A stretch of 64,000 nucleotides of DNA from Craspedostauros australis (taxonomy: Eukaryota): the NCBI GenBank assembly GCA_030167865.1, contig JALAGF010003865.1, positions 1 through 64,000 of the forward strand, read 5' to 3'. Made by a program: the position numbers and the translations under genes. The notes beneath the pieces are model-generated. The model had not been told where the DNA came from. It did not search any database and worked only from the letters and a program-made list of their open reading frames with translations. This document shows, piece by piece, positions 29,220-50,366 of the stretch (position 1 is the stretch's first letter; each line of letters opens with the position of its first letter).

Positions 29220-30599
29220 TCACAGCAGAATCTTGTATTTCTCCTTGGAAGGTACATGGTGAACGTACAGCTTGCCATCCAATCCAACCGATGCAAACAT
29301 CCACGGATCGCAGTGACCCCAAGCCACGGAGTAGATGGAATCCATGTGCTCGTGGTAACCCACACGGACGTTGGGACCGGACGCGTCCGAGTTGTCATCA
29401 TCGTTGGTTGCGCCTGACGCACCAGCCATGGTGCTGGCGTTGGTGGGCGTGTTGAGCGCCAGCAAGGGTGCGCTAGAAATGGTGCTGACACGCCACAGGT
29501 TGACGATGGCATCCGTGCCGGCGGACAGCACCAACTGATCGTGCGATGGGTTGTACTTGACGCACGATGACCAATGGCGATGTCCGCCACGCGCCATGAA
29601 CAGCGGGCGTTGCAGCTTCCTGTTGTTGCTGTTGGTGTTGCTGTTGCTGTTTGCTTGTACCGATGAGGAGGCATACCGCGTATCCCAAAACTTGACGAAG
29701 CCGTCCATCCCGGATGTTGCCAGCACGTTGGGTTTGTTGGGGTTGAAGTCCAGACCAGTGACACCTCCACGGTGCGATTTGAAGATGGTGCTGCTGCTCT
29801 CTGGCGACCTCCAGTCCAACATATGGATGCTCGATCCGCGAGAAACGGCCATGGCATCGCAATTGTGCGGATCCCATGCCAATTTGGAGGGATAGTACAG
29901 CGCGCATGCATCGGACCTCGCTGCGGCAGGAGTCGCCTTTGCTGCGAGGTCGATGGACATGGTGCGGCTTTGCTCGGCTGTGCCCATCGACAAGTCCCAC
30001 TGAGTGAGCATCCCAGATGCGGAAAGTGAAATGACATCGCCGCTGATCGATGCCTCCTCCTCGGAACCACGCCAGCAGATGTCAGAGATTTGAGCAGCAT
30101 CATTGCTGGCACTATTGCTGGTGCCGTCTGTCGAAGTCGGCGTGAGGTTTGCGATCTGCTCGATGAAGTTATCCTCCGAACCATACGCCTCAGCGTCATC
30201 GATGGATGTCCGGTCGAAGACATCTTGCGGGATGCGACAAAGGCTGGCCACAGAGGCAGCGCCAGCCGATGCGGCGGTGGAAGCCGACCGCGGATCTGGA
30301 CGCGAAAGGGAGAGGAAGAGAGACCGATCGTTGGGGCTTGTGACTATCTTCTGGATCCCTGCATTGTTGACGCCCCCATCGTCAAAGTCCTGCTGGTCTG
30401 GTGAGATGCTAGACAGCGACGCGACGTGGGTGAGCTGGTCGATGTCGGACTGGAAGCGCACCAAGTGGACGAAGTTGTCAGCACCGTTGGGATTGCACGT
30501 CGCCGTGATGAACATGGAATCCGATGCTTCGGCACGCACGGCGTCGACCGCGTGCAACGGCGAGTCGAACGAGAGCTCGCATGGGTGTGCTGAGAACAT
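29220..30599 (-). CDS. EIPR1: EARP/GARP-interacting WD40 protein (EIPR1/TSSC1)
   Basis: WD40 repeats (WDPH, LDFNPNK, VKFWDTR, HRHWSSCVKYNPSHDQLVLSAGTD, EHMDSIYSVAW..CDPWMFAS) and the C-terminus HVPSKEKYKILL. Confidence 0.9.
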   Translation of the reverse strand: MFSAHPCELSFDSPLHAVDAVRAEASDSMFITATCNPNGADNFVHLVRFQSDIDQLTHVASLSSISPDQQDFDDGGVNNAGIQKIVTSPNDRSLFLSLSRPDPRSASTAASAGAASVASLCRIPQDVFDRTSIDDAEAYGSEDNFIEQIANLTPTSTDGTSNSASNDAAQISDICWRGSEEEASISGDVISLSASGMLTQWDLSMGTAEQSRTMSIDLAAKATPAAARSDACALYYPSKLAWDPHNCDAMAVSRGSSIHMLDWRSPESSSTIFKSHRGGVTGLDFNPNKPNVLATSGMDGFVKFWDTRYASSSVQANSNSNTNSNNRKLQRPLFMARGGHRHWSSCVKYNPSHDQLVLSAGTDAIVNLWRVSTISSAPLLALNTPTNASTMAGASGATNDDDNSDASGPNVRVGYHEHMDSIYSVAWGHCDPWMFASVGLDGKLYVHHVPSKEKYKILL

Positions 30600-31255: not shown

Positions 31256-32395
31256 ATGGTGTCAGTTTCCTCTGGCTTGCGCAGGATCGTCTGCTTGGCA
31301 CTGTTATGCCTGTGCTTTGTCAGCACACCGACGGCAGCGTGGGAATGGTCGGACATCATGGGTGGCAGCGAGCACGTATCGTTCCAAACCACCACGCTGA
31401 CCATGATGGAGGTCTCCGAAATGCGCGTGCGTGACCTGCGGCGCAGACTCACACGACGGCACGGATATTCGGCCGAAGAGGTCGGGAGGATACTGGACAA
31501 GAAGGAGCTGATTCATCTTCTGTCCTTCGAGGAACACAAGGAGCGCGAGAAGGAGCGCACCGACTTCAAGCGGGAGGTGACGAAGCGCGCCATCGTTTAC
31601 ACATTCCTGGCGGTCGTTCTGGCGCTGTTCTGGCCGTTGCTGTTCCGGGCCTACGAGGTGGCCACCGTCAACTTCATCGTGTACAAGGATCGCAAGATTT
31701 ACGAGACGAAGCGGTGTTTCGAACTGAAGTCCGTCGCCGGCTTTGCGGGCATCATCGTCATGGCCATCATGGACGTGCTCCAGCTGTGGCTCTCCACCTC
31801 CGTGCTGCTGTCGTGGGTGATGAAGTCCAAGTACTTCTTCCCCACCCCCAGCCTCACCGTCAACCCAGCCAAGATGATGGGCGGGGAGGTGTCGAAGACC
31901 TCACTTGCACAGTACGGCTTGAACGTCGGGCCGATGGTTCTGACGTGGGTGTTCCGTTTCCTGTACAGCATCCTAGAACGTTGGACGGGGAAGGCATTGG
32001 CCAACGCGCATCAGCATCGCAAGCGCGAGGCCCGCGATGCGGAGACGCCGGAGGAGAAGGCGGCGAGAAAGGCAATGAGGAAGGCAGCCAAGCGTGCGGC
32101 TCGCAAGGAACGTGACGAGGAACGGAGGAAGCAGCAGGAGGAGGAGCAGCAGCGGCGCCGAGAGGCGGCAGATAAGGCGACGGCTTCGCTGTTTCCAAAA
32201 TCTGCGGCGCAGCAGCAGCAGCAGCAGACGTCTTCGGACCCCTCATCAACAGGTGCACCACAAGGGAGTAACGGTGGCAATGCCAACAACGCCAGCGACC
32301 ACGGCGACCTGTCTTCTCAACAGACGTGGAGCAATGCTGGAGCACAATTTCAAAGTCACGCAGCAGCGGGAATCAACATGGAAGATTTAGACTAG
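31256..32395 (+). CDS. Uncharacterised secretory-pathway membrane protein
   Basis: 379-aa ORF: signal peptide, SAP-like motif MRVRDLRRRL...LDKKELI, about 3 TM segments, charged helical tail. Confidence 0.8.
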   Translation: MVSVSSGLRRIVCLALLCLCFVSTPTAAWEWSDIMGGSEHVSFQTTTLTMMEVSEMRVRDLRRRLTRRHGYSAEEVGRILDKKELIHLLSFEEHKEREKERTDFKREVTKRAIVYTFLAVVLALFWPLLFRAYEVATVNFIVYKDRKIYETKRCFELKSVAGFAGIIVMAIMDVLQLWLSTSVLLSWVMKSKYFFPTPSLTVNPAKMMGGEVSKTSLAQYGLNVGPMVLTWVFRFLYSILERWTGKALANAHQHRKREARDAETPEEKAARKAMRKAAKRAARKERDEERRKQQEEEQQRRREAADKATASLFPKSAAQQQQQQTSSDPSSTGAPQGSNGGNANNASDHGDLSSQQTWSNAGAQFQSHAAAGINMEDLD

Positions 32396-32889: not shown

Positions 32890-34569
32890 ATGGCGGAAGG
32901 CAACGGCACCGAATTGAAGCGGGTGGCAAAGCTCGCAGATCTTTCCCCGGATCTCATTGGATCGCACGTCAAGATTCATGGTTGGACGTACTCCGTGCGA
33001 TCACAAGGCGCCGGAAGTCTGGTGTTCGTGGACGTGGGCGATGGAACCACCGTCACACCAACCCGCTGCATCGCGGTGAAGAAGTCCACAGAGGAAGGCG
33101 CCGAACCCGATGCGTACGCCTACGGCTCCAACGAGACCTCGTTGCTCGGAGATGCCAACGGAGACGAGACGCACTACAGCCGCCTCACCTTCGATGAGAT
33201 GGGCCAAGCCTCCCATCTCTCGCTGGGATGCTCCGTCATGGTCATCGGCTACGTCGCCGCACCGCCGGAGGGAACCACGCAGACCTTCGAGGTCAAGGTC
33301 CTCGAGCTCTTCGTCATCGGCGGCGTCGAGGATCCTTCCAAGTACCCCATCCAGAAATCCATCCTCAAAAAGCCACTGGCATTGCGTTCGCTGTACCACT
33401 CGCGATTCCGCGCTCCTCTCGTGCAGCAGATCATGCAGATCCGTTCCCAGACCCTCTTCGCCATCCACGAGTTCTTCAACCAGGAAGGCGTTCCGCTGCT
33501 CGACCCCAACATCATGACCAGCAGCGACTGCGAGGGTGCCGGTGAAGTCTTCAAGGTCACGCCGCAGTTCTTCACATCCGCCGCCGTGGAAGCCGACACC
33601 GGTGGTAAGGGAGGTGGCAAGACGAAGACCAAGGGCAAGGGAAAGACCGCCGATGCTGCTGCTGCTGCTGATGGTGCCGCCCCTGCCGCCGGTGAAGAAG
33701 TCGAAAAGAAGGTGGTGCCAGCCGCCGATGTTGGCCTCACCGTGTCGTCGCAGCTTCCCCTCGAGGCCATCGCCATGGGAACCGGATCCGTGTACACGTG
33801 CCAAAAGTCCTTCCGTGCCGAAAAGTCTGACACCAACAAGCACCTGGCCGAGTTCCTCCACGTCGAGTACGAGCAGTACTTCATCACCCTGGATGACCTC
33901 ATCTCCCAGGCGGAGCGATACGTCAAGCACGTCATCGCCAAGGTCGTCGAACGTTGCGACGCCCAGTACCGATTCTTGAATCAGAAGGCGCATTCACCGG
34001 CGGAATTTCACGGCCACAACGAATACCTCAAGACGCTGCTGGAGAAGCCCTTCGTCCGCATCAAGCACGCGGACGCGATCGCCGTGATGCAGCAGGATCT
34101 GCGTGACAAGGTCAAGACGATCAACGAGAAGGGCAAGGAGGTCAGGCTCAAGTTCAAGGTCAAGCCGACGGAGGGTGAGGATCTCGGATCGGAGCACGAG
34201 AAGTACCTCGTGCAAAAGTTCGGAACCTTCGTCTTCGTCACCCACTGGCCGTCCAAGATCAAGTCCTTCTACATGAAGCAGGTCGGCGACGGCACCTGCG
34301 AATCCTTCGACCTCCTCGCCCCTCTTGTCGGCGAGCTGTTTGGAGGATCCATGCGCGAATGGCGCTACGACGTGCTCGAGAACGAGATGAAGTCCAAGAA
34401 CATGGACATGAGCCCCCTGCAGTGGTTCGTCGACCTGCGCAAGGACGGAACCGCCCCGCATGGTGGATGGGGCATGGGATTCGATCGTTTGGTCATGTTC
34501 CTCACCAACTCCAACTCCGTGCGTGATGTCGTACCATACCCAGTGTACTACGGCCATTGCCCGTACTAG
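32890..34569 (+). CDS. asnS: Asparagine--tRNA ligase (class IIb), intronless
   Basis: OB-fold start (KIHGW...VFVDVGDG), TSSDCEGAGE, LTVSSQL, motif 2 FRAEKSDTNKHLAEF, GELFGGSMRE, motif 3 PHGGWGMGFDRL. Confidence 0.92.
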   Translation: MAEGNGTELKRVAKLADLSPDLIGSHVKIHGWTYSVRSQGAGSLVFVDVGDGTTVTPTRCIAVKKSTEEGAEPDAYAYGSNETSLLGDANGDETHYSRLTFDEMGQASHLSLGCSVMVIGYVAAPPEGTTQTFEVKVLELFVIGGVEDPSKYPIQKSILKKPLALRSLYHSRFRAPLVQQIMQIRSQTLFAIHEFFNQEGVPLLDPNIMTSSDCEGAGEVFKVTPQFFTSAAVEADTGGKGGGKTKTKGKGKTADAAAAADGAAPAAGEEVEKKVVPAADVGLTVSSQLPLEAIAMGTGSVYTCQKSFRAEKSDTNKHLAEFLHVEYEQYFITLDDLISQAERYVKHVIAKVVERCDAQYRFLNQKAHSPAEFHGHNEYLKTLLEKPFVRIKHADAIAVMQQDLRDKVKTINEKGKEVRLKFKVKPTEGEDLGSEHEKYLVQKFGTFVFVTHWPSKIKSFYMKQVGDGTCESFDLLAPLVGELFGGSMREWRYDVLENEMKSKNMDMSPLQWFVDLRKDGTAPHGGWGMGFDRLVMFLTNSNSVRDVVPYPVYYGHCPY

Positions 34570-35854: not shown

Positions 35855-38061
35855 TTAGCGACCGCCGGCGGCCTGTCCCTGTGGTGTTCCAGGTCGGCCC
35901 TGTCCGCCACCTTGGTATGGGTAACGCTGTCTCTTTTCGGCTGGCTTCAGAATCTGGAAGGAGCACATGAGGGTTTCGTCGACGCTCATCATGGCGCCGG
36001 CGTTGTCGAATTCACCGCAGTAGTTTGGTGCAGAGAAGAGGGTGACGAGCTGTCGGCGGGCGAAGAATTCGTATCCGTCCTCGACGACCTGGTGGGCGCG
36101 GCAGATGAGGTCCAGGTCGTGCTTGTGGAGGAACTGTGCCACGATATCTTCCCCGAAGGTAAATGACACACCCCGATCGTTCTCTCCCCATCCGTCGATC
36201 TCCTTGTCTGGGTCGGACCAGAGGAGATCGCAAAGAAGACCGGTGTCCGGCACGTCGGTTGGTCTCACGATGCGTTTTACTTGATCCAGGCTTGTGAGCT
36301 CTGGGCTGAGACCTCCGTGCATGCAGAAAATCTTCTCGTCAATGACAGCGGCGCATGGTAGGCAGTTGAAGCAGTCAGTGAACGTCTTCCACAGTTTGAT
36401 TCCGAACCGTCGCTTACACTCATCATAAAATCCATAGATACGGTTAATCGACGCGCACTCGTGGTTGCCGCGGAGGATGAAGAAGTTCTCCGGGAACTTG
36501 ATTTTGTACGCTAACAGGAGGCAGATGGTCTCCAGACTCTGCTTGCCTCTGTCGACGTAGTCGCCAAGGAAGACGTAGTTGGCCTCGGGTGGGAAGCCTC
36601 CGTACTCGAAGAGACGCAGGAGATCGTAGTACTGTCCGTGGACGTCACCGCAGATCTTGATGGGTGCCTCGAGTTCCAGCAGCATGGGTTGGCCGATGAG
36701 GAGATCGCGGCTTCGCAAGCAAAGCATTTTGATTTCGGCTTCGGAGAGGTCGACCTGCTTTCCTGGGCGAGCTCCGCGGACGCTGCACGTTTAGAGTCGT
36801 GGCGTGGGGGGATCGATGAGACGATGGATGGCGTGGTGAAGCCGGATGCGTGTCCAGAGGGTGCACGGGCGGGTGATGATGGGAACGTTGGTTAGCACGT
36901 TTAATGAGAGGAGGAGAGAGATAGTTCCAAGCGGACGTGGTTTGGTGAGTTGTTGGATGTGATAGTTGATGCACGGATGCTTGTTGAAGTGAGCTGTGAC
37001 AGATCGGTGGTATCGTCGCCCGCACCAGCCAGAGCGCTGTGCACAGGGTCCCTCCAGCCGACCGATCAACCGCAGCAGAAAAGCTTCGGCCTGGATCATT
37101 GCTCCAAACCATGCTCCATCTCCCACAAAGCCGCTGGCTACTGCTGTTGCTGTGTCTATAGGGAGCCCATCAAGACACATGTGCGCAAGTGGCGAAGGAG
37201 GTAATGTTGATGCGTTGACACATGGGCACGTGCCAAACACCACCAGTGCAGGTGCACGGTGGTACTATCACTCCCAGCTGTCGCCACCCTGGAACACCGA
37301 TCGGCAGCCACGCTTCGCCATCAACATGGGATGCTGCTGCTAATGCTGATGCTGTCGCAATTGTTCGGAAGCGGAAGTTGCTCGTCCGCTGCGCCGAGGA
37401 TTCAACGGGTCATCCTCATTTGTGTCTCGCAGGCTCCTTTTTGCTAGGATGACCGGCGGATACGGCCTTGGCGTTGGCTTCTTGGCTGTGCTGTCGGCGC
37501 ATGGCCATCAAGGCCTTGTCCCTTCCACAAACGGCCTCTCGCGACGAGAATGGTTCTGTGTTGGAGAAGCGCTAAAGTCCGTGCCTTTGCCACCATTGCG
37601 TACCGCGTTTGGACAATGATGTCGGATGACGGAAGGAGCGGGATGGCTGTCCGCAACTTGCCCACGAATACGAAGTCTTGCATGTGATTGTCGTAGTAGT
37701 GGTGGTGGTGTTGGAGGTGGCAACAGTGGCGATAGTGCCTGTACTGCCGTGCTTCTGGATAGTCCGGACTGAGATGGCGGCACCAGTATGCTGTCCGTTT
37801 CGGTTTCCCACAGCGACAGCTGCTGCTGCCGCCGCCAAAAGCGCGCGCAGGCAGTTGCACACACAACAGGCAAACAAGACGGCTGGAGGTCGGCAAAACT
37901 CTCATGACATTCACGCAAACTGCGGGATCTTGCGGGGTGGTTTACGCGTAGTAGGCATCTTACCTCAAGAGCTTGTCGATGATGACATCGACTGGGTCGC
38001 TGAGCAAGGCCACCTGGCCATTTGATGGTCCGTCTCCGGCGTTGGATGGGTCTTCAGACAT
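35855..38061 (-). CDS. PP1: Ser/Thr protein phosphatase PP1 catalytic subunit; exons 38061-37964, 36782-35855
   Basis: [30 protein letters not shown]. Splicing AG|C joins DVIIDKLLS to [10 protein letters not shown]. Confidence 0.97.
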
Positions 38062-39615: not shown

Positions 39616-42023
39616 ATGAAGATATACTACACGGTCCTCGCATCTGCCTTCGCGGGCATCACCCTCCCGCGCAGATCGAGCGCCTGGGTACACACCTGCA
39701 AATCGAATCTGATCCGTCACAGGCAGCAACCGACGTCGGTATCTGCATCGGTTCTGCTGGATGGATCCAGAGTCACCCAGCAGCAATGTCACAGCCGCAA
39801 CGGATGTCTCCACACTGCATCCGCTTCGTGCTCCACAACTGCGTTGTGCGCGACTCCATCGGCTTCCGTTCCCAAGGAAAGCACGCGCGTGGACAAGCCG
39901 GGTGTGATCGCCGAAGGCAAGATCGTTTCCGTCGTTTCCAATGGCTTGGTTGCTGTCAATGTGGATGTGGAGCAAGTCGGTGCCAGAAGCGGAAGCAGCG
40001 ACAGTGATGAGAAAGCATCCACAGCTGGGATCACCCCCGGGAGCAAATCATTCATGGGAGGAGGCGCAACCGCAAACAGCAAGGAGAATCTCGGTAAGCT
40101 CATCCCAGAATGATTCATGCTATTGGTATTGCTATTGCTATTGCTATTGCTGTTGGTCTATGATTGAGGTCTTCATCGGTGTCGTTATCTTTTTGCACTT
40201 GCGAAGCGGGTGAAAGGAGAGTCCATCGAACAATGCAACCCCATCACACGGAACAGGCACCTCTTGGAAATGCTTGGAAAAGCACTCACTCACAGTCATT
40301 CGTCATTCTTATGTGTCATTTTCACCACCATCTTTACGTAAACTACAACTACATCGCACAACTTCGTGATGCAATCGATCGCGACGCTAACGCAGGTGGA
40401 GATTTGACAGGACGATCGGTCATTCTGCCCGACCAAACGAAAGGCGTCGTCGTGGCCCACAGGCCGCCCATCGCATTCGTGTACTCCGGAAAGCAAGCAT
40501 CCGATCACAGCGATGGTGGTATCGCGCAGATCTTGGAGGATTTGGAATCCGTCTCGATGGGAACCACAGCACGCATCATGGATTGCTTCGGCCAATCCAT
40601 CAATGGTGATGACGATGATGCGGCTCCATCCGATACCAGCGACGGTAGCAGCGACAATAGCAGCAACAGCCGGAAGATATTCGCGGCCATCCCACAGGTA
40701 AAGGATATCGCTTTAATCAACAGTCCGTTGGTGACAGGCATCACCATGTTCGATGCGTTGGCGCCGATCGGGAATGGTCAGAATATGCTCATGATTGGAC
40801 ATGACCTGCAGGATATGCGGGCCTACGTCCGGGATATCTTGGCGTCGCAGAAAGATAGTGGACTCAAATGCGTATACGCCATCACGAGCGACGCGGAAGA
40901 AGTGCAGAAATCCTTGGCGGAGGCCGGTGTGCTCGAAGACGTGACGTTGGTCGTTCCAACGGAGAACGGCAAGGACGCATCCTCCATGGCCGCCGAAGCC
41001 GTTACAATTTGTGCCACCGCCTGCGCGGTTGGTGAAATCCATGCATTGAAGAGCGGCGAAGATGCCCTCGTCATCATCGACAACATTGACCAGCAAAAGA
41101 AGCTGTGGGATATCACCACGCAGGTGCTGGTGGATGTGTTCGGCGTGGATGCCGTGGTGCAGAGCGACCGTGAGGGTGGCGCATCGTCCGAGATGAGGGC
41201 ATTCTACTCCTCGCTGATCCAACGGTCGGCCCAATACAACATGAAGAACGGTGGCGGCAGCGTGACGCTCGTGATGCTCACCACCATCCCGCAATCCGTC
41301 GAGGCCAACGAGGATGCGGTGTTCGACGCGGACGATTTCAGCAGCATGGGTGACAAGATCAAGGAGAGGATAAGCCTGCTGGTGAATCGCAGCATCCCGC
41401 TGACGTCGGGTAATTTGAAGAAGGTGGGCATTCCCATTCCATCCGATGCGGAAGGCAGAAGACGTCTGGCCCTGCAGCACGTCGATGACCTGATCAGCAT
41501 GTCGGATGGTCAGATCTGGTTCGACGAATCTCTCAGTGACAACGGGCAGAGACCGTGCATGGACCCGCAACGCAGCATCACACGAGTTGGGATCGGAGCC
41601 GACACTGAGTCGCGCGCCGATGCTCCTGCCATCCGCCGCATCGTGGAAGGTCTGCGGTTGGATCTGGCGCAGGCGGCCTCCATGGAAGGCGCCGACGTGG
41701 CGACGAAGGCATCCATCCAGCAAATTCGCAAGGCCAAGGCGCTGCTGCTGGCCATGCACCAGCCGTCAAGTATGGGCGGCAGGTCGCTGTCGGAATCATG
41801 TACCGTGATCCTTGCAGCATCGAGAGGGTATCTGGATGACGCCGTGGATGGCGGGAAGATGGCCGGCACCGCTGAGGGTGACGCTTTGATTAAGGAAATG
41901 TTGCAATATGTGCGCAAGGAGGCGGCTGGACCATTGACGACGATCGACGAGACGTTGGACATGACAGACGAAGTGCAATCGGACATTGAAGGGGTGCTGG
42001 AGGCATTCTTTGGAAAGGAGTAG
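39616..42023 (+). CDS. Divergent F1 ATP synthase alpha-like protein, P-loop degenerate, probably plastid-targeted; exons 39616-40093, 40396-42023
   Basis: PLVTGITMFDALAPIGNGQ, ALVIIDNI, SSLIQRSAQ..GGGSVT, LISMSDGQIW..GQRP..SITRVG and LRLDLAQ are collinear with F1-alpha. Phase-1 GT-AG intron. N-terminal signal peptide, then SSA|WV and a Ser/Thr/Arg-rich transit-like region. Confidence 0.85.
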
Positions 42024-44975
42024 GATGCAAGGACGAGCTGCGAGCTATTGTACGAGTGGAGTAGCTGGCACATTTACCAACCACATCTCAAGAACAATTC
42101 GATTTTCTTTCAGAGCAATTTCGCTCGAGTACGATGTACCAGTTGTATGCAGTTGCTGCTTGTGGGCATTAGAGTTGGGGCTGGCATAGGGACGAGCCGT
42201 GTAGGAGCTGTGCACCGAGCGATACTATTCTATTGGGCAGGTTCGGAGCATTGCACACAGATCACGAGCAGGGACGAGCATGTGTGGCAGCTCGTGCGAC
42301 TGCGAGCGTGAACAGCGACGTCGCTTCAGAACGCTTTGACATGGAGCACGGCACAGCTGTGAGAAGACAACTCGCGGATACGTACGTGCGCGTACACAAG
42401 TCGCCATTGCATCAAGGGGGGGATCAAACCATCCGTTTAGTATGGATATTCCCTTCCGAGAACATTTGCAGTCCGCAACGGAGATGTGAGGGCGTTGACT
42501 ATGGGTGGGCATGCAGGAGGCGCACAAATTCAAGGATGTTCCGGCACGAACTTTGCCTACTACACTGCTCAGCCATTGTCCGTACCAAGCGATCTTGGAC
42601 GTGTATGGTATTCTGCTCACCAACGAAGATGAACCTCACGATGACTGTCGAAAGAGCCACGGAAGACAATTACAATCTACATCTTGCCCTGTGTCTGCCT
42701 TTGCCGTTGTCGCTGCCAAATGATTCATCGGCCTTGGGAAGATCTTCCACCGTGGAATTGATGAGTGGGGCAAACCGCATGACGAACCGAGATGGCATGG
42801 TCATGAAGAGAAAGACAGAGATGGATGATTCCATAAAAGTGAGGGGCAAACAACCACCAGCAGACATGCCCAGCGAGGCCTTTTGCATCGAGATAAATGC
42901 GCTTCCCTTGGTTTCGGTTGGCTCCTCTCTCTCTTGGTTTGGTGACTGTTGTTCCCATTCTTAAATGCGCTCGATTCCGGCTGCGAATGTTTGTCTCGCT
43001 GGTTTGTCCCATCTGCGCTCGCTTGGTCTGGTTTCAGGATGATGGTGCCCGCCAAGCGGTTCTTGGTGCAGAACGACAAAGGAACTGAGCAAGCTGATGA
43101 AAGAGGAGGCGCAAGCCGGAATGGAGAGACGTTCAGAGACAACGATGGAATCCGCGCGGAAGAAGGGGAGAAGAAGGGCGGAGGAAGGAGGCGGATCAAT
43201 TGATGGAGGCGGAGACAAAACGGGCAGAGATGAAACAAAGGCAAAAGAGAGAGCAGCTGAATGAACACCCAGGATGGGAAGCTGCCTACTGTATCACGCA
43301 TGTCACCGCCCCACAGGAGCAAACCGAGCACCAGCATCCATGTTGACGTCGACGCTGATGGTTGAATGAGGCTGCCAGATGTTGCCATCACCGCTGTTGA
43401 AGCTGATGGCTCTTCTTGGGGGCAGACCCCCTCCTTGTCTGTTTCTGTGTCGAAAGGACACGTCTCCCGTTCTCGTTGTCGTTCTAGTGTTCATGGAGCT
43501 TCTCCACTCCGGTATCTGCCCCTGTCGCATCATTGCACACACCCCGCATCCATCTTCAACCAACCGCCCTGCCTCCACCTCCATGTCTGCCCTCGTTCTG
43601 TTCCTTGCTTCACTTCACTCACACACTTGACTTGGCTTCACTTGGCTTCTCTTCTTGTTCTCGTGACTGACACGACGAAGGTGATGGGTGTCACACCAAT
43701 CCTGCACTTGGAGGCGAAGCCACTTTGTTCCCCTCTTCTCTCTTCAACATGAGATTTGTCGGATGGAATTCCGCTCGCATCGGACGTGGAGAACAACATC
43801 GAATGACCCAACCAGAACATCGGTGATGTTTCCTCGGTCGTTTGGCCGTGCGAAGCGAACTGCACATTCGGGAGTCAAGAGCGTGACTGATCGAATACCA
43901 CATGGTGCACGCTCGCGCCAGACATGCCACAAAACCGTTGGCCGTGCCTTTGAAATATCGCAGGCAGGTCATGGATTTTTGAAAAGTTGTCTTTGGTGCG
44001 TGGGCCAAGCAGTGTTTTGGTTGGATGACTCTGGGGTTACAGGACGTTGAATTTGCATCAAGACGTTGTTGCGCACAACGGTGGTTACCTGCTGGCTGCA
44101 GCGTGCACTGCCACGGAGTCTTGTCTCTGCTCGGAACTCTTTCGGCTTCCGCGACGTTGTGTGTTCGTGTCTTGGATGCGAAACAAGCGGTGTTGTTGTT
44201 GTTGATGATGTTGTCGTTGCGGTTGGGGAGTGTTCGCATCTCAGCACAGACGGCGATGTGTTCGACGAATGGGCGCCTTCTGGCCAATGGAGCAGTTTCG
44301 TGGTCGGTTTAGTGGGGCGCCTCCAAGTCCCGCAGGCGCTGCGCGAGAGAGTGACGTGATGAACAAAGCAGAACAACAGCAGGAACACCAGTTACTCGCA
44401 ACGTGGCCTTGGGACTGGTACCAGCGCGCAGGGTGTGGGCGATCTTTCGCCTCCACCACCGCTGCAGTTGCGCTGCGTCGTTTTGGCCTCTGGTTCGGCT
44501 TGCTTTCGTCTTTGGTCTTTCGCCCCTCTTTGGTTTGTTTCCGCCCTCTCTGCCTGTCTCTCCTGTGTGTTCGTTCGTGTTGCCGATACACGACACAACA
44601 GTGTGGAGTATTGGTGGCTCGTGTCGTGAGTGAGCTGCAACGCGAGAAAGTGCCGACAGAGGAACAGGGTCAACAGAACCCCTCCCCTGCGTAGCTCTGC
44701 ACTGATGCACCATCTGGCAAGAACCAAAACGAAGCACATCACAAAACCTGCACAAGACCAACACACAACAAGAAGGTTGAACAGCCCATCCACCATCAAC
44801 CATCAACCCACACGCAACGACTCACTCAAACGCAAGCGAAGACAGCACTGCAGAACAAAAACGAAGCGAGCAATCACAAAATCATCACCTCCACTTCAGA
44901 AGCATCAGCACACCAACGACCCCAATCAAAGAACTGAGCGCGCCAGACGAAACCCACACCAAACGACACGCAACC

Positions 44976-47799
44976 ATGCAGCAACAACCAACCACGACGG
45001 CGGAGACCACAATGGTTCTCACAGATCCCGAGGCAACACCAATGCCGATAGAGGCGACAATGGCAGCACAGCAGCACAGAGTGCTGATTTACACCACCTG
45101 CTACAACGTCATCGATGGGTACGTCGGCATTTCGGCCAGCAGCAATGCGGTCAGCCCATTTGCAAATGTTGCACTTTTGATGCATCGCATTCTTCGCATT
45201 GCCACTTGTGTGGCGTCGCGCTTGAGCTTGGTCACACGGTTGCGCTTTCGTACTCGGTTTCCCACTTTGCGGGACAAACGTCGGCGTTGCCAACTGCGCT
45301 GGAGAATGATTTTGTGCATCTTGACTGAGGCAAGAACACAAGGACGCATTCACCTGCCCATCCGGATGTTGCGCATGGTCTGACCATGGCAGGCAGCTGT
45401 GGCGGTGCAGTCGGTCACCGCTGCTTCGCAGTGCTTGGTCAGTCTGGATCGCACGCGTCACGCACCTTTCGGAGGCCAGCCATCCTGGTTTTGCTCGACC
45501 ATGTGAATGGCACACATGAACCAAACAACGATTGATTCGTGCAAGCACAGAGCTGCACAAGTGATCTTGTGAAACATTGCACTCACACGGGTTGAATCTC
45601 CTTCCGTCTCCTTCTCTCTCTCTCTCTCTCTGCGAATCCACTTTCACACTACAAACTGGTCGTATGTCTCCGACGTCACCGATCTCGCTCCATGTGATGA
45701 ACGACAACAACAACAACGATGGATTATCATCACCTGACCATGCTCATTTTCCATGCTCATTTCCCGGTTTCTTCTCCCCGCACGTACTATCATCTCAACA
45801 AAATGTCATCGGTCGCACATTCCATCGTTCGCAACACCGCCCTCATGGACTTCAACTCGTTCCCCTTCACCTTGCACACGGGCTGTCTTGAACAATCTCT
45901 CTTGTCAATCCAACATGCGCGCCACTCAATCGAATTGAATTGAATTGAATTGAATTACACAGAGTGACGCTGACAATCCGAAAGATCGAGGAACAGATCC
46001 TCGCAGCTGGACACCAGGTGTGCATCCTCAGCACCGACAGCGGCAACTCGCAGAACACAAACCTCGTCAGCGAACATCCGAACAGGACCGTCATCTTCCT
46101 TGACAATAGCGTTCCGATTCCGTTCCTTCACGATCCCCAGAACGTCGACAGCAGCTACAGCCTCGGTTTCTCGTTGGGCAAGTCCACCAAGGACCAGATA
46201 AGCCAATTCGACCCGACCATCGTCCACGTCACTGCCCCGGACTGCACCTGCCTGCATGTCATCCAATACGCACGCGACCATGAGATCCCCCTCATGGGAA
46301 CCTACCACAGCAACATCCCGGAGTACATGGACCACTACCCAGGTCTCGGATGGTTGAAGCACGTCCTCGCCTCCTTCTTCCGTCACCAGTACAACTTCCT
46401 GCAGGCCCTCTACGTGCCAACCCCATATATCCACAAGCAGCTCCGAGAATCGTCCAAGATGGACTGCGTCACGGACCTGGGGGTGTGGGGCCGTGGAATC
46501 GACCTCTCCCGCTTCTCGCCCACCCACCGCACGCGCAAGTTCCGCGAAAGCCTCGGCTTCGACGATCACGACGTGGTCATTTGCTGGGTCGGCAGGCTGG
46601 TGCCGGAGAAGCGACCTGACATCTTTGCCTCCGTCATCAAGCGACTCGCGTCGCGCAACATCCCATTCAAGGCCCTGGTCATCGGAGCCGGTCCGTGCGA
46701 GGAGTCCATGAAGGCCCTCCCCAACACCGTCTTCGCTGGCTGGATGAGCGGCGACGAGCTCAGCACTGCCTACGCCTCCAGCGACGTCTTCCTCTTCTCA
46801 TCCGGCGTCGAAACCTTCGGCAACGTCACGCTCGAAGCTGCTGCCTCTGGCCTGCCGATCATCGTCGAAGAAGGATGCTCCGGACATCTCGTGCAGCATG
46901 GTCGCAACGGCTTTGCCTGCGCCAACGGCGACGTCGATGCCTTCTACGATGCCACCCTCTGCCTCGTCCTCGACGACGAGCGCAGAAACCTGATGTCGCA
47001 CGCGAGCCGCCAATTCTCGCTGCAGTTTGAAAAATCCGTCGTCTGTCGCAGAATGCTCGACAACTACACCAAGGTCACCAAGCAATTCTTCGACGAGTAC
47101 GGTGGCCACCATGCCAACCGTGATGCGGAGTACCACAAGGAGCACTCCTTCGTCGGCGGCAACTACCCGCGCCCATTCCTCCTGCAAATGTTCGAGTATC
47201 TCTTCGTCGTCCTGTTCCAGGTCATGTACCAGATGGCAACTTTCTTCATCCACGTGCGCGATTCCTTCCCGCTTGCCAGCACCAACAAGCAACGCGTAAC
47301 TGCGGCAGCGGTGACCACCAAGAAGGTTGCGCCACAATCGCCAACATCAGCGGCGAAGCAACAGCCCACCATGGCCACGCTGGGCTCTGCAAGCGAAGCA
47401 GAAACGCAGCCACTTATGGCCGACGCCGATGACGATGTCGAGCTTGGACGCATCGAGGAGGTCGAGGAGATCAGCGACTCCGACACCGATTTCGAATCCC
47501 AGAACGCACCCCTTCAAACGATTGACATGGACAAGGACATGGAGTGCGAGACGGAAACCACCGTCAGCTCATCGTCGGAACGATCGCAGGAGCAATCCCA
47601 GGGTTCCATGGTTTGCTTCGGCAAACAGAAGAAGTCGAAAAATGACATCTACGTCTCACATGAGATCACGAAGGCCATCATCCGCCTGGTCTTCTTCCAG
47701 TTCCTCATCGAATGCAGAACACGCGATTTCTTCGGATACGTTCTGTCTCCATCCAAGTGGACAACGATCTCCGTCGGACGGCGACGAAAGAACAATTAA
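44976..47799 (+). CDS. GT4-family glycosyltransferase (PimB/MgtA/SQD2-related); exons 44976(or 45012)-45118, 45963-47799
   Basis: VLIYTTCYNVIDG|VTLT spans a phase-2 intron. TYHSN, WGRGID..RFSP, VGRLVPEK, YASSDVF..ETFGNVTLEAAASGLP. Confidence 0.88.
45932..45956 (+). repeat. (GAATT)x5 microsatellite next to a splice acceptor
   Basis: Read directly; acceptor AG is at 45961-45962. Confidence 0.85.

Positions 47800-48651: not shown

Positions 48652-50366
<1,715 letters not shown>

Follow-up and report, generated by a model that had tools for sequence, protein, structure and literature searches.

A window of 64,000 nucleotides from the diatom Craspedostauros australis (contig JALAGF010003865.1, GenBank assembly GCA_030167865.1) carries, at positions 39616-42023 of its + strand, a gene whose product resembles the alpha subunit of F-type ATP synthase, lacks the canonical nucleotide-binding loop (P-loop, or Walker A motif) and contains an additional insertion, hereafter called the bump. 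This locus raises the question of what such a protein is and what it may do beside the canonical alpha subunit. The gene is almost certainly an orthologue of xATPA, a family that is already on record in a preprint of July 2026, which has not passed peer review (Penot-Raquin et al., bioRxiv 10.64898/2026.07.08.737214; hereafter the xATPA preprint). A sequence-only reading of the locus had presented the protein as a separate, nucleotide-blind alpha mimic, and novelty is not supported in view of the published description; the defining features of xATPA were recognised from the raw sequence alone, but they are no longer a discovery.

Alpha-like fold, altered motifs and identity of the gene

In the Pfam search, the window protein matched the alpha/beta nucleotide-binding domain PF00006 (E 2.2e-12), together with a weak match to the C-terminal domain PF00306 that stayed under the cut-off. 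The PDB sequence search gave 86 matches at E<=0.01, the best 60 of which were without exception alpha-type chains, with E. coli alpha (3oaa_A, 4.3e-27) in first place, ahead of T. maritima alpha. For the protein part encoded by exon 2, the AlphaFold2 model computed from a 65-sequence family alignment had a mean predicted local distance difference test score (pLDDT) of 92.8 and a predicted template modelling score (pTM) of 0.92, and Foldseek against the PDB recovered F1 ATP synthase chains over the whole length (E ~1e-30, template modelling (TM) score 0.68-0.79, identity 18-24%). The collinearity with ATP synthase alpha that had been proposed from the letters is therefore borne out by the domain, sequence and structure searches. 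Only two loops of the model were poorly defined, around residues 31-40 and 71-90 (exon-2 numbering, as for all residues in this section). An acidic, Ser-rich loop, NGDDDDAAPSDTSDGSSDNSSNS, is located between the barrel and the nucleotide-binding fold at ~40599-40667 (residues ~68-90); it has the lowest model confidence (pLDDT 56-57), and its length differs among orthologues.

The segments in which the window protein was compared with canonical alpha subunits are as follows.

40797..40820, + strand: degenerate Walker A, GHDLQDMR for GDRQTGKT (alignment to E. coli and T. maritima alpha)
41064..41090, + strand: Walker-B-like strand ALVIIDNID, aligning to ALIIYDDLS of E. coli alpha
41157..41204, + strand: VQSDREGGASSEMRAF for the PPGREAYPGD(I/V)F segment (alignment to T. 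maritima alpha)
41250-41273, + strand: GGGSVTLV strand, after which the insertion comes
41286..41468, + strand: bump domain, residues ~297-357, gapped in canonical alphas
41574..41591, + strand: arginine-finger motif SITRVG, Arg codon 41583-41585, aligning to SVSRVG of E. coli and T. maritima alpha

None of the sequences compared, the window protein and seven full-length diatom orthologues, has GxxxxGK[ST] where Walker A is expected, and in the PDB alignments the canonical GQRELIIGDRQTGKT and RRPPGREAYPGDIF face GQNMLMIGHDLQDMR and DAVVQSDREGGASSEMRAF of the window protein, respectively. The Walker-B-like Asp (D228) is kept in at least 90% of the 65 family sequences, and R267, within the VQSDREGGASSEMRAF segment that replaces PPGREAYPGD, is invariant in all 65. 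The distance from GGGS to the S-x-S-D-G-Q motif (ISMSDGQ) is 82 residues, compared with 27 in the canonical alpha P0236, corresponding to ~55 extra residues, close to the roughly 50 first estimated. These residues were modelled as a loop plus short helices (H311-314, H319-330, H337-342 and H350-368; pLDDT 92-97) that lead into the ISxSDGQ helix. The arginine finger (R396) does not vary among 26 sequences and is found in at least 90% of the 65. Thus the replaced Walker A, the replaced PPGREAYPGD segment, the insertion after GGGSVTLV and the retained Arg of TRVG, all noticed at first sight of the sequence, were found again by alignment, and the protein as modelled keeps the full three-domain alpha fold and the arginine finger, has lost Walker A, and has its bump folded near the former nucleotide pocket.

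The xATPA preprint defines the family as nucleus-encoded ~70-kDa homologues of F-type alpha with an N-terminal targeting sequence, a ~60-residue bump at a fixed position, an inconsistent P-loop and a conserved arginine finger. The window protein combines the alpha fold (PF00006, PDB, AlphaFold2 and Foldseek) with a bump of ~55 residues at the position described in the preprint, GHDLQDMR at the Walker A position, SITRVG with R396, and an N-terminal extension of ~94 residues with an SSA/W junction (slashes in motifs mark junctions) and a putative plastid destination. In the tree described below, it also belongs to the 47-row clade (SH-aLRT, the Shimodaira-Hasegawa-like approximate likelihood ratio test, 96) that includes Chlamydomonas Cre10.g419050 (ATP1B), which the preprint names as the Chlamydomonas xATPA. 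According to the same source, which covers 222 xATPA sequences, the family occurs in Chlorophyta, euglenophytes, dinoflagellates, haptophytes, chlorarachniophytes, cryptophytes and several heterokont groups including diatoms. In the main text of Dorrell et al. 2017 (PMC5462543), the terms 'ATP synthase', 'ATPase' and 'atpA' are all absent.

The same features set the gene apart from canonical AtpA. In place of the Walker A sequence GDRQTGK[TS] there is GHDLQDMR, and the uninterrupted GGGSLTALPIIET-x12-NVISITDGQ stretch is broken by the ~55 inserted residues. In diatoms, atpA is plastid-encoded, whereas the window gene carries a presequence, is interrupted by an intron and lies among nuclear-type genes. 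The plastid ATPA A0T0F1 is mentioned in the xATPA preprint.

In the word-indexed protein search, 543 proteins were found at E<=1e-5 among 8000 scored, of which the best 120 shared 51-68% identity with the window protein and covered at least 91% of the query; every named relative among these 120 was a diatom (Pseudo-nitzschia, Nitzschia, Cylindrotheca, Fistulifera, Mayamaea and a metagenome-assembled genome (MAG) of Bacillariaceae). No identical protein was present among the matches of this search, the best relative being 68% identical. An exhaustive HMMER scan of 1.84 billion representatives gave 944 matches at E<=1e-3, 305 at <=1e-10 and 80 at <=1e-30, and in ESM Atlas clusters the commonest known phyla were Chlorophyta and Bacillariophyta. 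Distant members (23-45% identity) retained the insertion at the same place and the arginine finger, and many of them start with signal-peptide-like or transit-peptide-like N-termini. One distant match, P0240, is from Pedinophyceae sp., and a search with it gave 69 green-algal proteins from genera including Chlorella, Coccomyxa, Nannochloris and Volvox, among them P0334, which is CHLRE_10g419050v5 (Cre10.g419050). The window protein matched P0334 directly (BLASTP E 3e-12, 27-28% identity over the aligned parts) with a shared insertion site. The step from P0240 to CHLRE_10g419050v5, this BLASTP match and the shared insertion clade tie the window gene to xATPA.

Compared with Phaeodactylum xATPA (Phatr3_J31465, UniProt B7FRE6), the window gene is likewise a nuclear alpha paralogue from a raphid pennate diatom, with a targeting sequence, the same bump site, no P-loop and an arginine finger. 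The source of the window is not Phaeodactylum, because the best database relative of the window protein is only 68% identical. By description, the two genes also differ in structure, since the Phaeodactylum gene is monoexonic according to the xATPA preprint, whereas the window gene has a 302-nt intron. Chlamydomonas ATP1B shares the insertion clade and the insertion site (distance 71 vs 27 in canonical alpha) and has the arginine-finger motif SITRIG where the window protein has SITRVG. Unlike the window protein, it keeps Walker A (GPGGAGKT), has a shorter, green-type bump without detectable sequence similarity to the diatom-type one (group medians 49 vs 65 residues), and, serving a primary plastid, is without a signal peptide. 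Canonical AtpA (3oaa_A, 2r9v_A and 6fkh_C) has in common with the window protein the three-domain fold, the Walker-B-like Asp strand and the arginine finger SxxRVG, whereas the window protein is without Walker A, has PPGREAYPGD replaced and ~55 residues added after the GGGS strand, is encoded by a nuclear gene with an intron and a bipartite presequence, and is 18-24% identical to solved alphas.

Exon structure, presequence and nuclear location

ORF translation and a survey of splice pairs gave a two-exon protein-coding gene of 701 codons on the + strand, with the start ATG at 39616 (the first ATG of the frame) and the stop TAG at 42021-42023.

39616..40093, + strand: exon 1, 159 codons + 1 base; presequence, first N-terminal beta-barrel strands and a Ser/Gly-rich loop
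40094..40395, + strand: intron, 302 nt, phase 1; starts GTAAGC, ends CTAAC-GCAG
40396..42023, + strand: exon 2; remaining barrel, nucleotide-binding-fold domain, bump, C-terminal helical domain and stop
39616..39684, + strand: signal-peptide-like segment MKIYYTVLASAFAGITLPRRSSA, read from the sequence, with putative cleavage before W24 (39685-39687)
39676-39687, + strand: SSA/W junction, read from the sequence
39685..39897, + strand: transit-peptide-like region, residues 24-94, between the A/W junction and the first conserved strand; putative function

The frame of exon 1 runs into a stop at 40113, and the second frame is uninterrupted between 40164 and the TAG at 42021-42023. The "long intact ORF" of the sequence-only reading therefore stands in one respect, as the frame is intact over 701 codons, and falls in another, as the span consists of two exons and not of one ORF. 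The pair 40094/40395 was the sole stop-free GT-AG pair with a strong donor (G/GTAAGC) and an LGGDL junction. Other acceptors that keep the frame are present at 40401 and 40410. The 3' end of the intron is CTAACGCAG, with CTAAC ahead of the acceptor and the acceptor context GCTAACGCAG/G, and the joined protein reads ENLG/GDLTGRS, with LGGDL at exactly that point in five of the seven full-length orthologues. In the diatom alignment, exon-1 residues 95-120 (PGVIAEGKIVSVVSNGLVAVN) match the PIAxGxIVxxFxGGLVAxR block of the orthologues, which forms the first barrel strands; since exon 1 aligns to these strands, both exons are part of the gene. The 40094-40395 junction is thus supported by homology on both sides. 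RNA reads across the intron were not found in the one public run (guessed RNA type, 17% of sampled words), which stops short of the junction: a single 519-nt contig from this run is identical to window positions 41565-42083, covering the 3' end of the gene. Should the run be RNA, the end of this contig 60 nt past the stop codon would be consistent with a short 3' UTR. Within the intron there is also a (TATTGC)n hexanucleotide microsatellite at 40113-40163 (core 40127-40150), which was skipped as a repeat in read mapping.

The presequence continues as MKIYYTVLASAFAGITLPRRSSA/WVH and extends over ~94 residues ahead of the first barrel strand. Residues 24-94 are rich in Ser, Thr, Arg, Gln and Cys, and differ among orthologues in sequence and by many gaps. 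The window protein and six of the seven full-length diatom orthologues start with a hydrophobic segment that ends in A/W, the Fistulifera protein having G/W. An aromatic residue at position +1 after the signal peptide marks stromal import into the complex plastids of diatoms. Plastid targeting of the window protein is supported by this layout, with cleavage site and destination as predicted from sequence, and the bipartite presequence with SSA/WV proposed earlier agrees with the arrangement common to the diatom orthologues. The proposed plastid location is also consistent with the xATPA preprint, in which Phaeodactylum xATPA-eGFP co-localises with chlorophyll and Euglena xATPA is present in the plastid proteome.

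The ORFs that flank the gene match ordinary nuclear genes of eukaryotes, and none of them is related to ATP synthase.

29220-30599, - strand: WD40/EIPR1-type propeller (ORF match)
31256-32395, + strand: Med19, weak match (ORF match)
32890-34569, + strand: class II aminoacyl-tRNA synthetase, D/K/N type (ORF match)
35855-36727, - strand: PP1-type Ser/Thr phosphatase (ORF match)
45964-47799, + strand: GT4 glycosyltransferase (ORF match)
49371-50366, + strand: protein arginine methyltransferase (ORF match)

Because the gene has an intron of the spliceosomal type and neighbours typical of the nucleus, it is nuclear, as had been read from the sequence at the outset.

Losses of the P-loop and origin of the bump

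To place the window protein within the family, a tree of 52 rows picked from a 94-row FastTree overview was computed by an IQ-TREE quick search (LG+G4, 572 columns) and rooted on three bump-less rows with the canonical GDRQTGK[TS] loop. The 47 insertion-bearing rows formed one clade (SH-aLRT 96), apart from the three canonical and two other bump-less alphas, and this clade split into a green clade of 10 rows including ATP1B (99) and a clade of 37 rows (98), for which "diatom-containing clade" is used as a label and not as the taxonomy of every row. The window protein was found within the latter, in a 7-row group (99) with Pseudo-nitzschia, Nitzschia, Cylindrotheca, Fistulifera and Mayamaea.

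All 10 rows of the green clade have an intact Walker A, as was confirmed by eye for P0320 and P0334 (GPGGAGKT), and in the diatom-containing clade 8 of 37 rows have one. Among these eight is P0126 (GQKGTGKS), which shares 53% identity with the window protein and is nested within the diatom-clade rows; half-decayed loops were present in the close relatives P0137, P0143, P0216 and P0239 (GANGTGKR, GEEGTGRR, GERGTGRK and GEKGTGKR). By parsimony on the 52-row tree, at least five changes of the Walker A state are needed, and one change of the bump state suffices. Since the loop is intact in the green and in some diatom-clade rows and at least five changes are needed, these alignments indicate that a P-loop is the ancestral state of xATPA and that repeated losses followed the appearance of the bump, also inside the diatom-containing clade. 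The description "nucleotide-blind" given in the sequence-only reading accordingly holds, by sequence, for the window gene and its pennate relatives but does not extend to the family at large; the absence of a P-loop describes lineages within xATPA.

The diatom-type bump is well conserved over the 37-row clade, with an aromatic residue in the xDF motif, an R..L helix and RGIPLT..L.KIGIP.P, and median bump lengths are 49 residues for the green type and 65 for the diatom type. In an hhalign comparison of bump-only profiles, no similarity between the two types was detected (probability 0.2%, E 0.26), the reversed control giving a probability of 0.3% and E 0.22. The xATPA preprint leaves the homology of the two bump types open. 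Position and parsimony favour a single origin of the green and diatom bumps, to which the sequence adds no support.

Two further groups of rows were observed in this comparison. P0170, P0175, P0177, P0196 and P0230 form a P-loop-intact subclade with a diatom-type bump and a conserved C-terminal extension that ends in F(T/V/A)(S/N)WD, the diatom proteins being without this extension. P0243 and P0265 are divergent, bump-less, alpha-like proteins with an intact Walker A that branch between canonical alpha and the xATPA clade, and they could be intermediates or long-branch canonical alphas.

Proposed action on the beta subunit and competing explanations

The mechanism proposed here, in which the protein would act on the beta subunit as an alpha mimic, is held at even odds in our judgement. 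xATPA would dock on beta through the catalytic-type interface and present its arginine finger, and the bump would keep it from closing a productive alpha3beta3 ring. It may in this way hold a pool of unassembled or partial F1 (beta and gamma), and may modulate the activity, stability or synthesis of beta outside ATP synthase itself. Its own nucleotide binding would be dispensable, and on this proposal that is why the P-loop decayed several times.

According to the xATPA preprint, Phaeodactylum xATPA binds ATPB in vitro with a Kd of 1.2e-8, compared with 2.3e-9 for ATPA (~5-fold weaker), and pulls down ATPB and ATPC from lysate. AlphaFold 3 predictions in the same source place it at the alpha position in F1, with the bump stopping the last beta and a complex of 2 alpha, 2 beta and 1 xATPA on gamma. 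In four Phaeodactylum CRISPR knockouts, growth departed from normal only when 6 degC, half salinity and constant light were combined. The earlier suggestion of an alpha mimic is thus supported as far as in-vitro ATPB binding and the ATPB/ATPC pull-down of the orthologue reach, but the roles of assembly factor, chaperone or regulator that were named with it are unproven.

A narrower form of the proposal, which we regard as possible and put forward tentatively, is that xATPA is a beta-capping pseudo-subunit, whose arginine finger would engage the catalytic site of unassembled plastid beta and whose bump would block ring closure, so that a reserve of beta is held. A non-catalytic member of the alpha/beta superfamily without canonical GxxxxGK[ST] is known in the B subunit of V/A-type ATPases, which contributes to the interface of its catalytic partner and forms part of the ring of a working rotary enzyme in stoichiometric amounts. 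In contrast to the V/A-type B subunit, xATPA is predicted to prevent ring closure and is described in the xATPA preprint as dispensable for ATP synthase function.

Several points weigh against this interpretation. In the xATPA preprint, the Phaeodactylum knockouts were without an Fv/Fm (maximum quantum yield of photosystem II), high-light or UV phenotype, ATP-synthase pathways were unchanged in knockout RNA-seq, and the authors state that xATPA may have no part in ATP synthase function. Growth differences in yeast without ATP1 suggested that xATPA has properties unlike canonical alpha in vivo; a labyrinthulomycete xATPA failed to rescue the knockouts, and some labyrinthulomycetes that have xATPA are not photosynthetic. 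The evidence for the partial-F1 complex consists of an AlphaFold prediction combined with an in-vitro pull-down, and localisation and binding are transferred to the window gene by analogy from an orthologue that is probably ~50% identical. For the window gene itself, the intron is predicted from homology, and the tree is a quick search with five bump-less outgroup rows and several long branches or compositional outliers.

The explanation that survives best beside the alpha-mimic mechanism, although we consider it rather unlikely, is that xATPA acts in the plastid through a role outside F1, for instance as a scaffold or regulator of protein synthesis or turnover, and that beta binding is an ancestral leftover. 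The knockout altered protein-metabolism and not ATP-synthase pathways and left photosynthesis unaffected, xATPA levels in mutants of Chlamydomonas and Cyclotella did not depend on other F1 subunits, and the family extends to some labyrinthulomycetes (all from the xATPA preprint); in addition, the bump is the most family-specific part, is confidently folded in the model and could be a docking platform. These observations are met by the arginine finger, which matters only when facing a beta-type catalytic site and yet is invariant or nearly so, by the recovery of ATPB and ATPC from whole-cell lysate, and by the nanomolar affinity for ATPB, the last two as reported in the preprint.

Considerably less probable is an alternative alpha isoform that is built into working CF1 (the plastid F1) under cold, low salinity and continuous light and tunes its activity, even though the alpha fold is complete and the arginine finger is present. 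A further point in its favour is that canonical non-catalytic sites are not required for catalysis itself. The condition-specific knockout phenotype and environmental expression given in the xATPA preprint also speak for it, but in the same source the bump is predicted to stop binding of the third beta, the growth differences of the yeast ATP1 deletion suggest non-alpha properties in vivo, Fv/Fm and light-stress responses of the knockouts are unchanged, and xATPA is a ~5-fold weaker competitor than ATPA for ATPB.

A mitochondrial alpha isoform, as which Chlamydomonas ATP1B and the Volvox homologue ("F1F0 ATP synthase, subunit alpha, mitochondrial") are annotated, is very improbable, since the window protein and the diatom orthologues start with a signal peptide ending in A/W. 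Such a signal peptide with A/W is the entry pattern of complex plastids, unlike mitochondrial presequences. Targeting predictions for the family give mitochondria or chloroplasts in the xATPA preprint, which nevertheless finds the Phaeodactylum orthologue in the plastid and the Euglena one in the plastid proteome.

A decaying nuclear copy of organellar atpA (a pseudogene derived from plastid or mitochondrial DNA, NUPT/NUMT), which the lost Walker A and the replaced PPGREAYPGD segment might suggest, is effectively refuted by the 701-codon frame that is intact across a canonical intron, the 51-68% identity of the best 120 listed relatives, the invariant residues spread along the protein in 65 sequences, the confident model (pLDDT 92.8), the identical 519-nt contig over the 3' end in the public run of guessed RNA type and the knockout phenotype of the orthologue (xATPA preprint), in agreement with the initial view that the gene is not a pseudogene.

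If the beta-capping reading is true, xATPA would keep a reserve of beta or beta-gamma and would suppress futile ATP hydrolysis or feed back on beta synthesis, which would matter under strained plastid proteostasis, such as cold with continuous light. The decay of the P-loop would then be a natural series in which the non-catalytic site became dispensable only after the protein had left the working enzyme. As a plastid protein, xATPA is widespread in marine microalgae and subject to ecological regulation, and the window adds to it a diatom orthologue whose gene structure differs from that of the Phaeodactylum gene.

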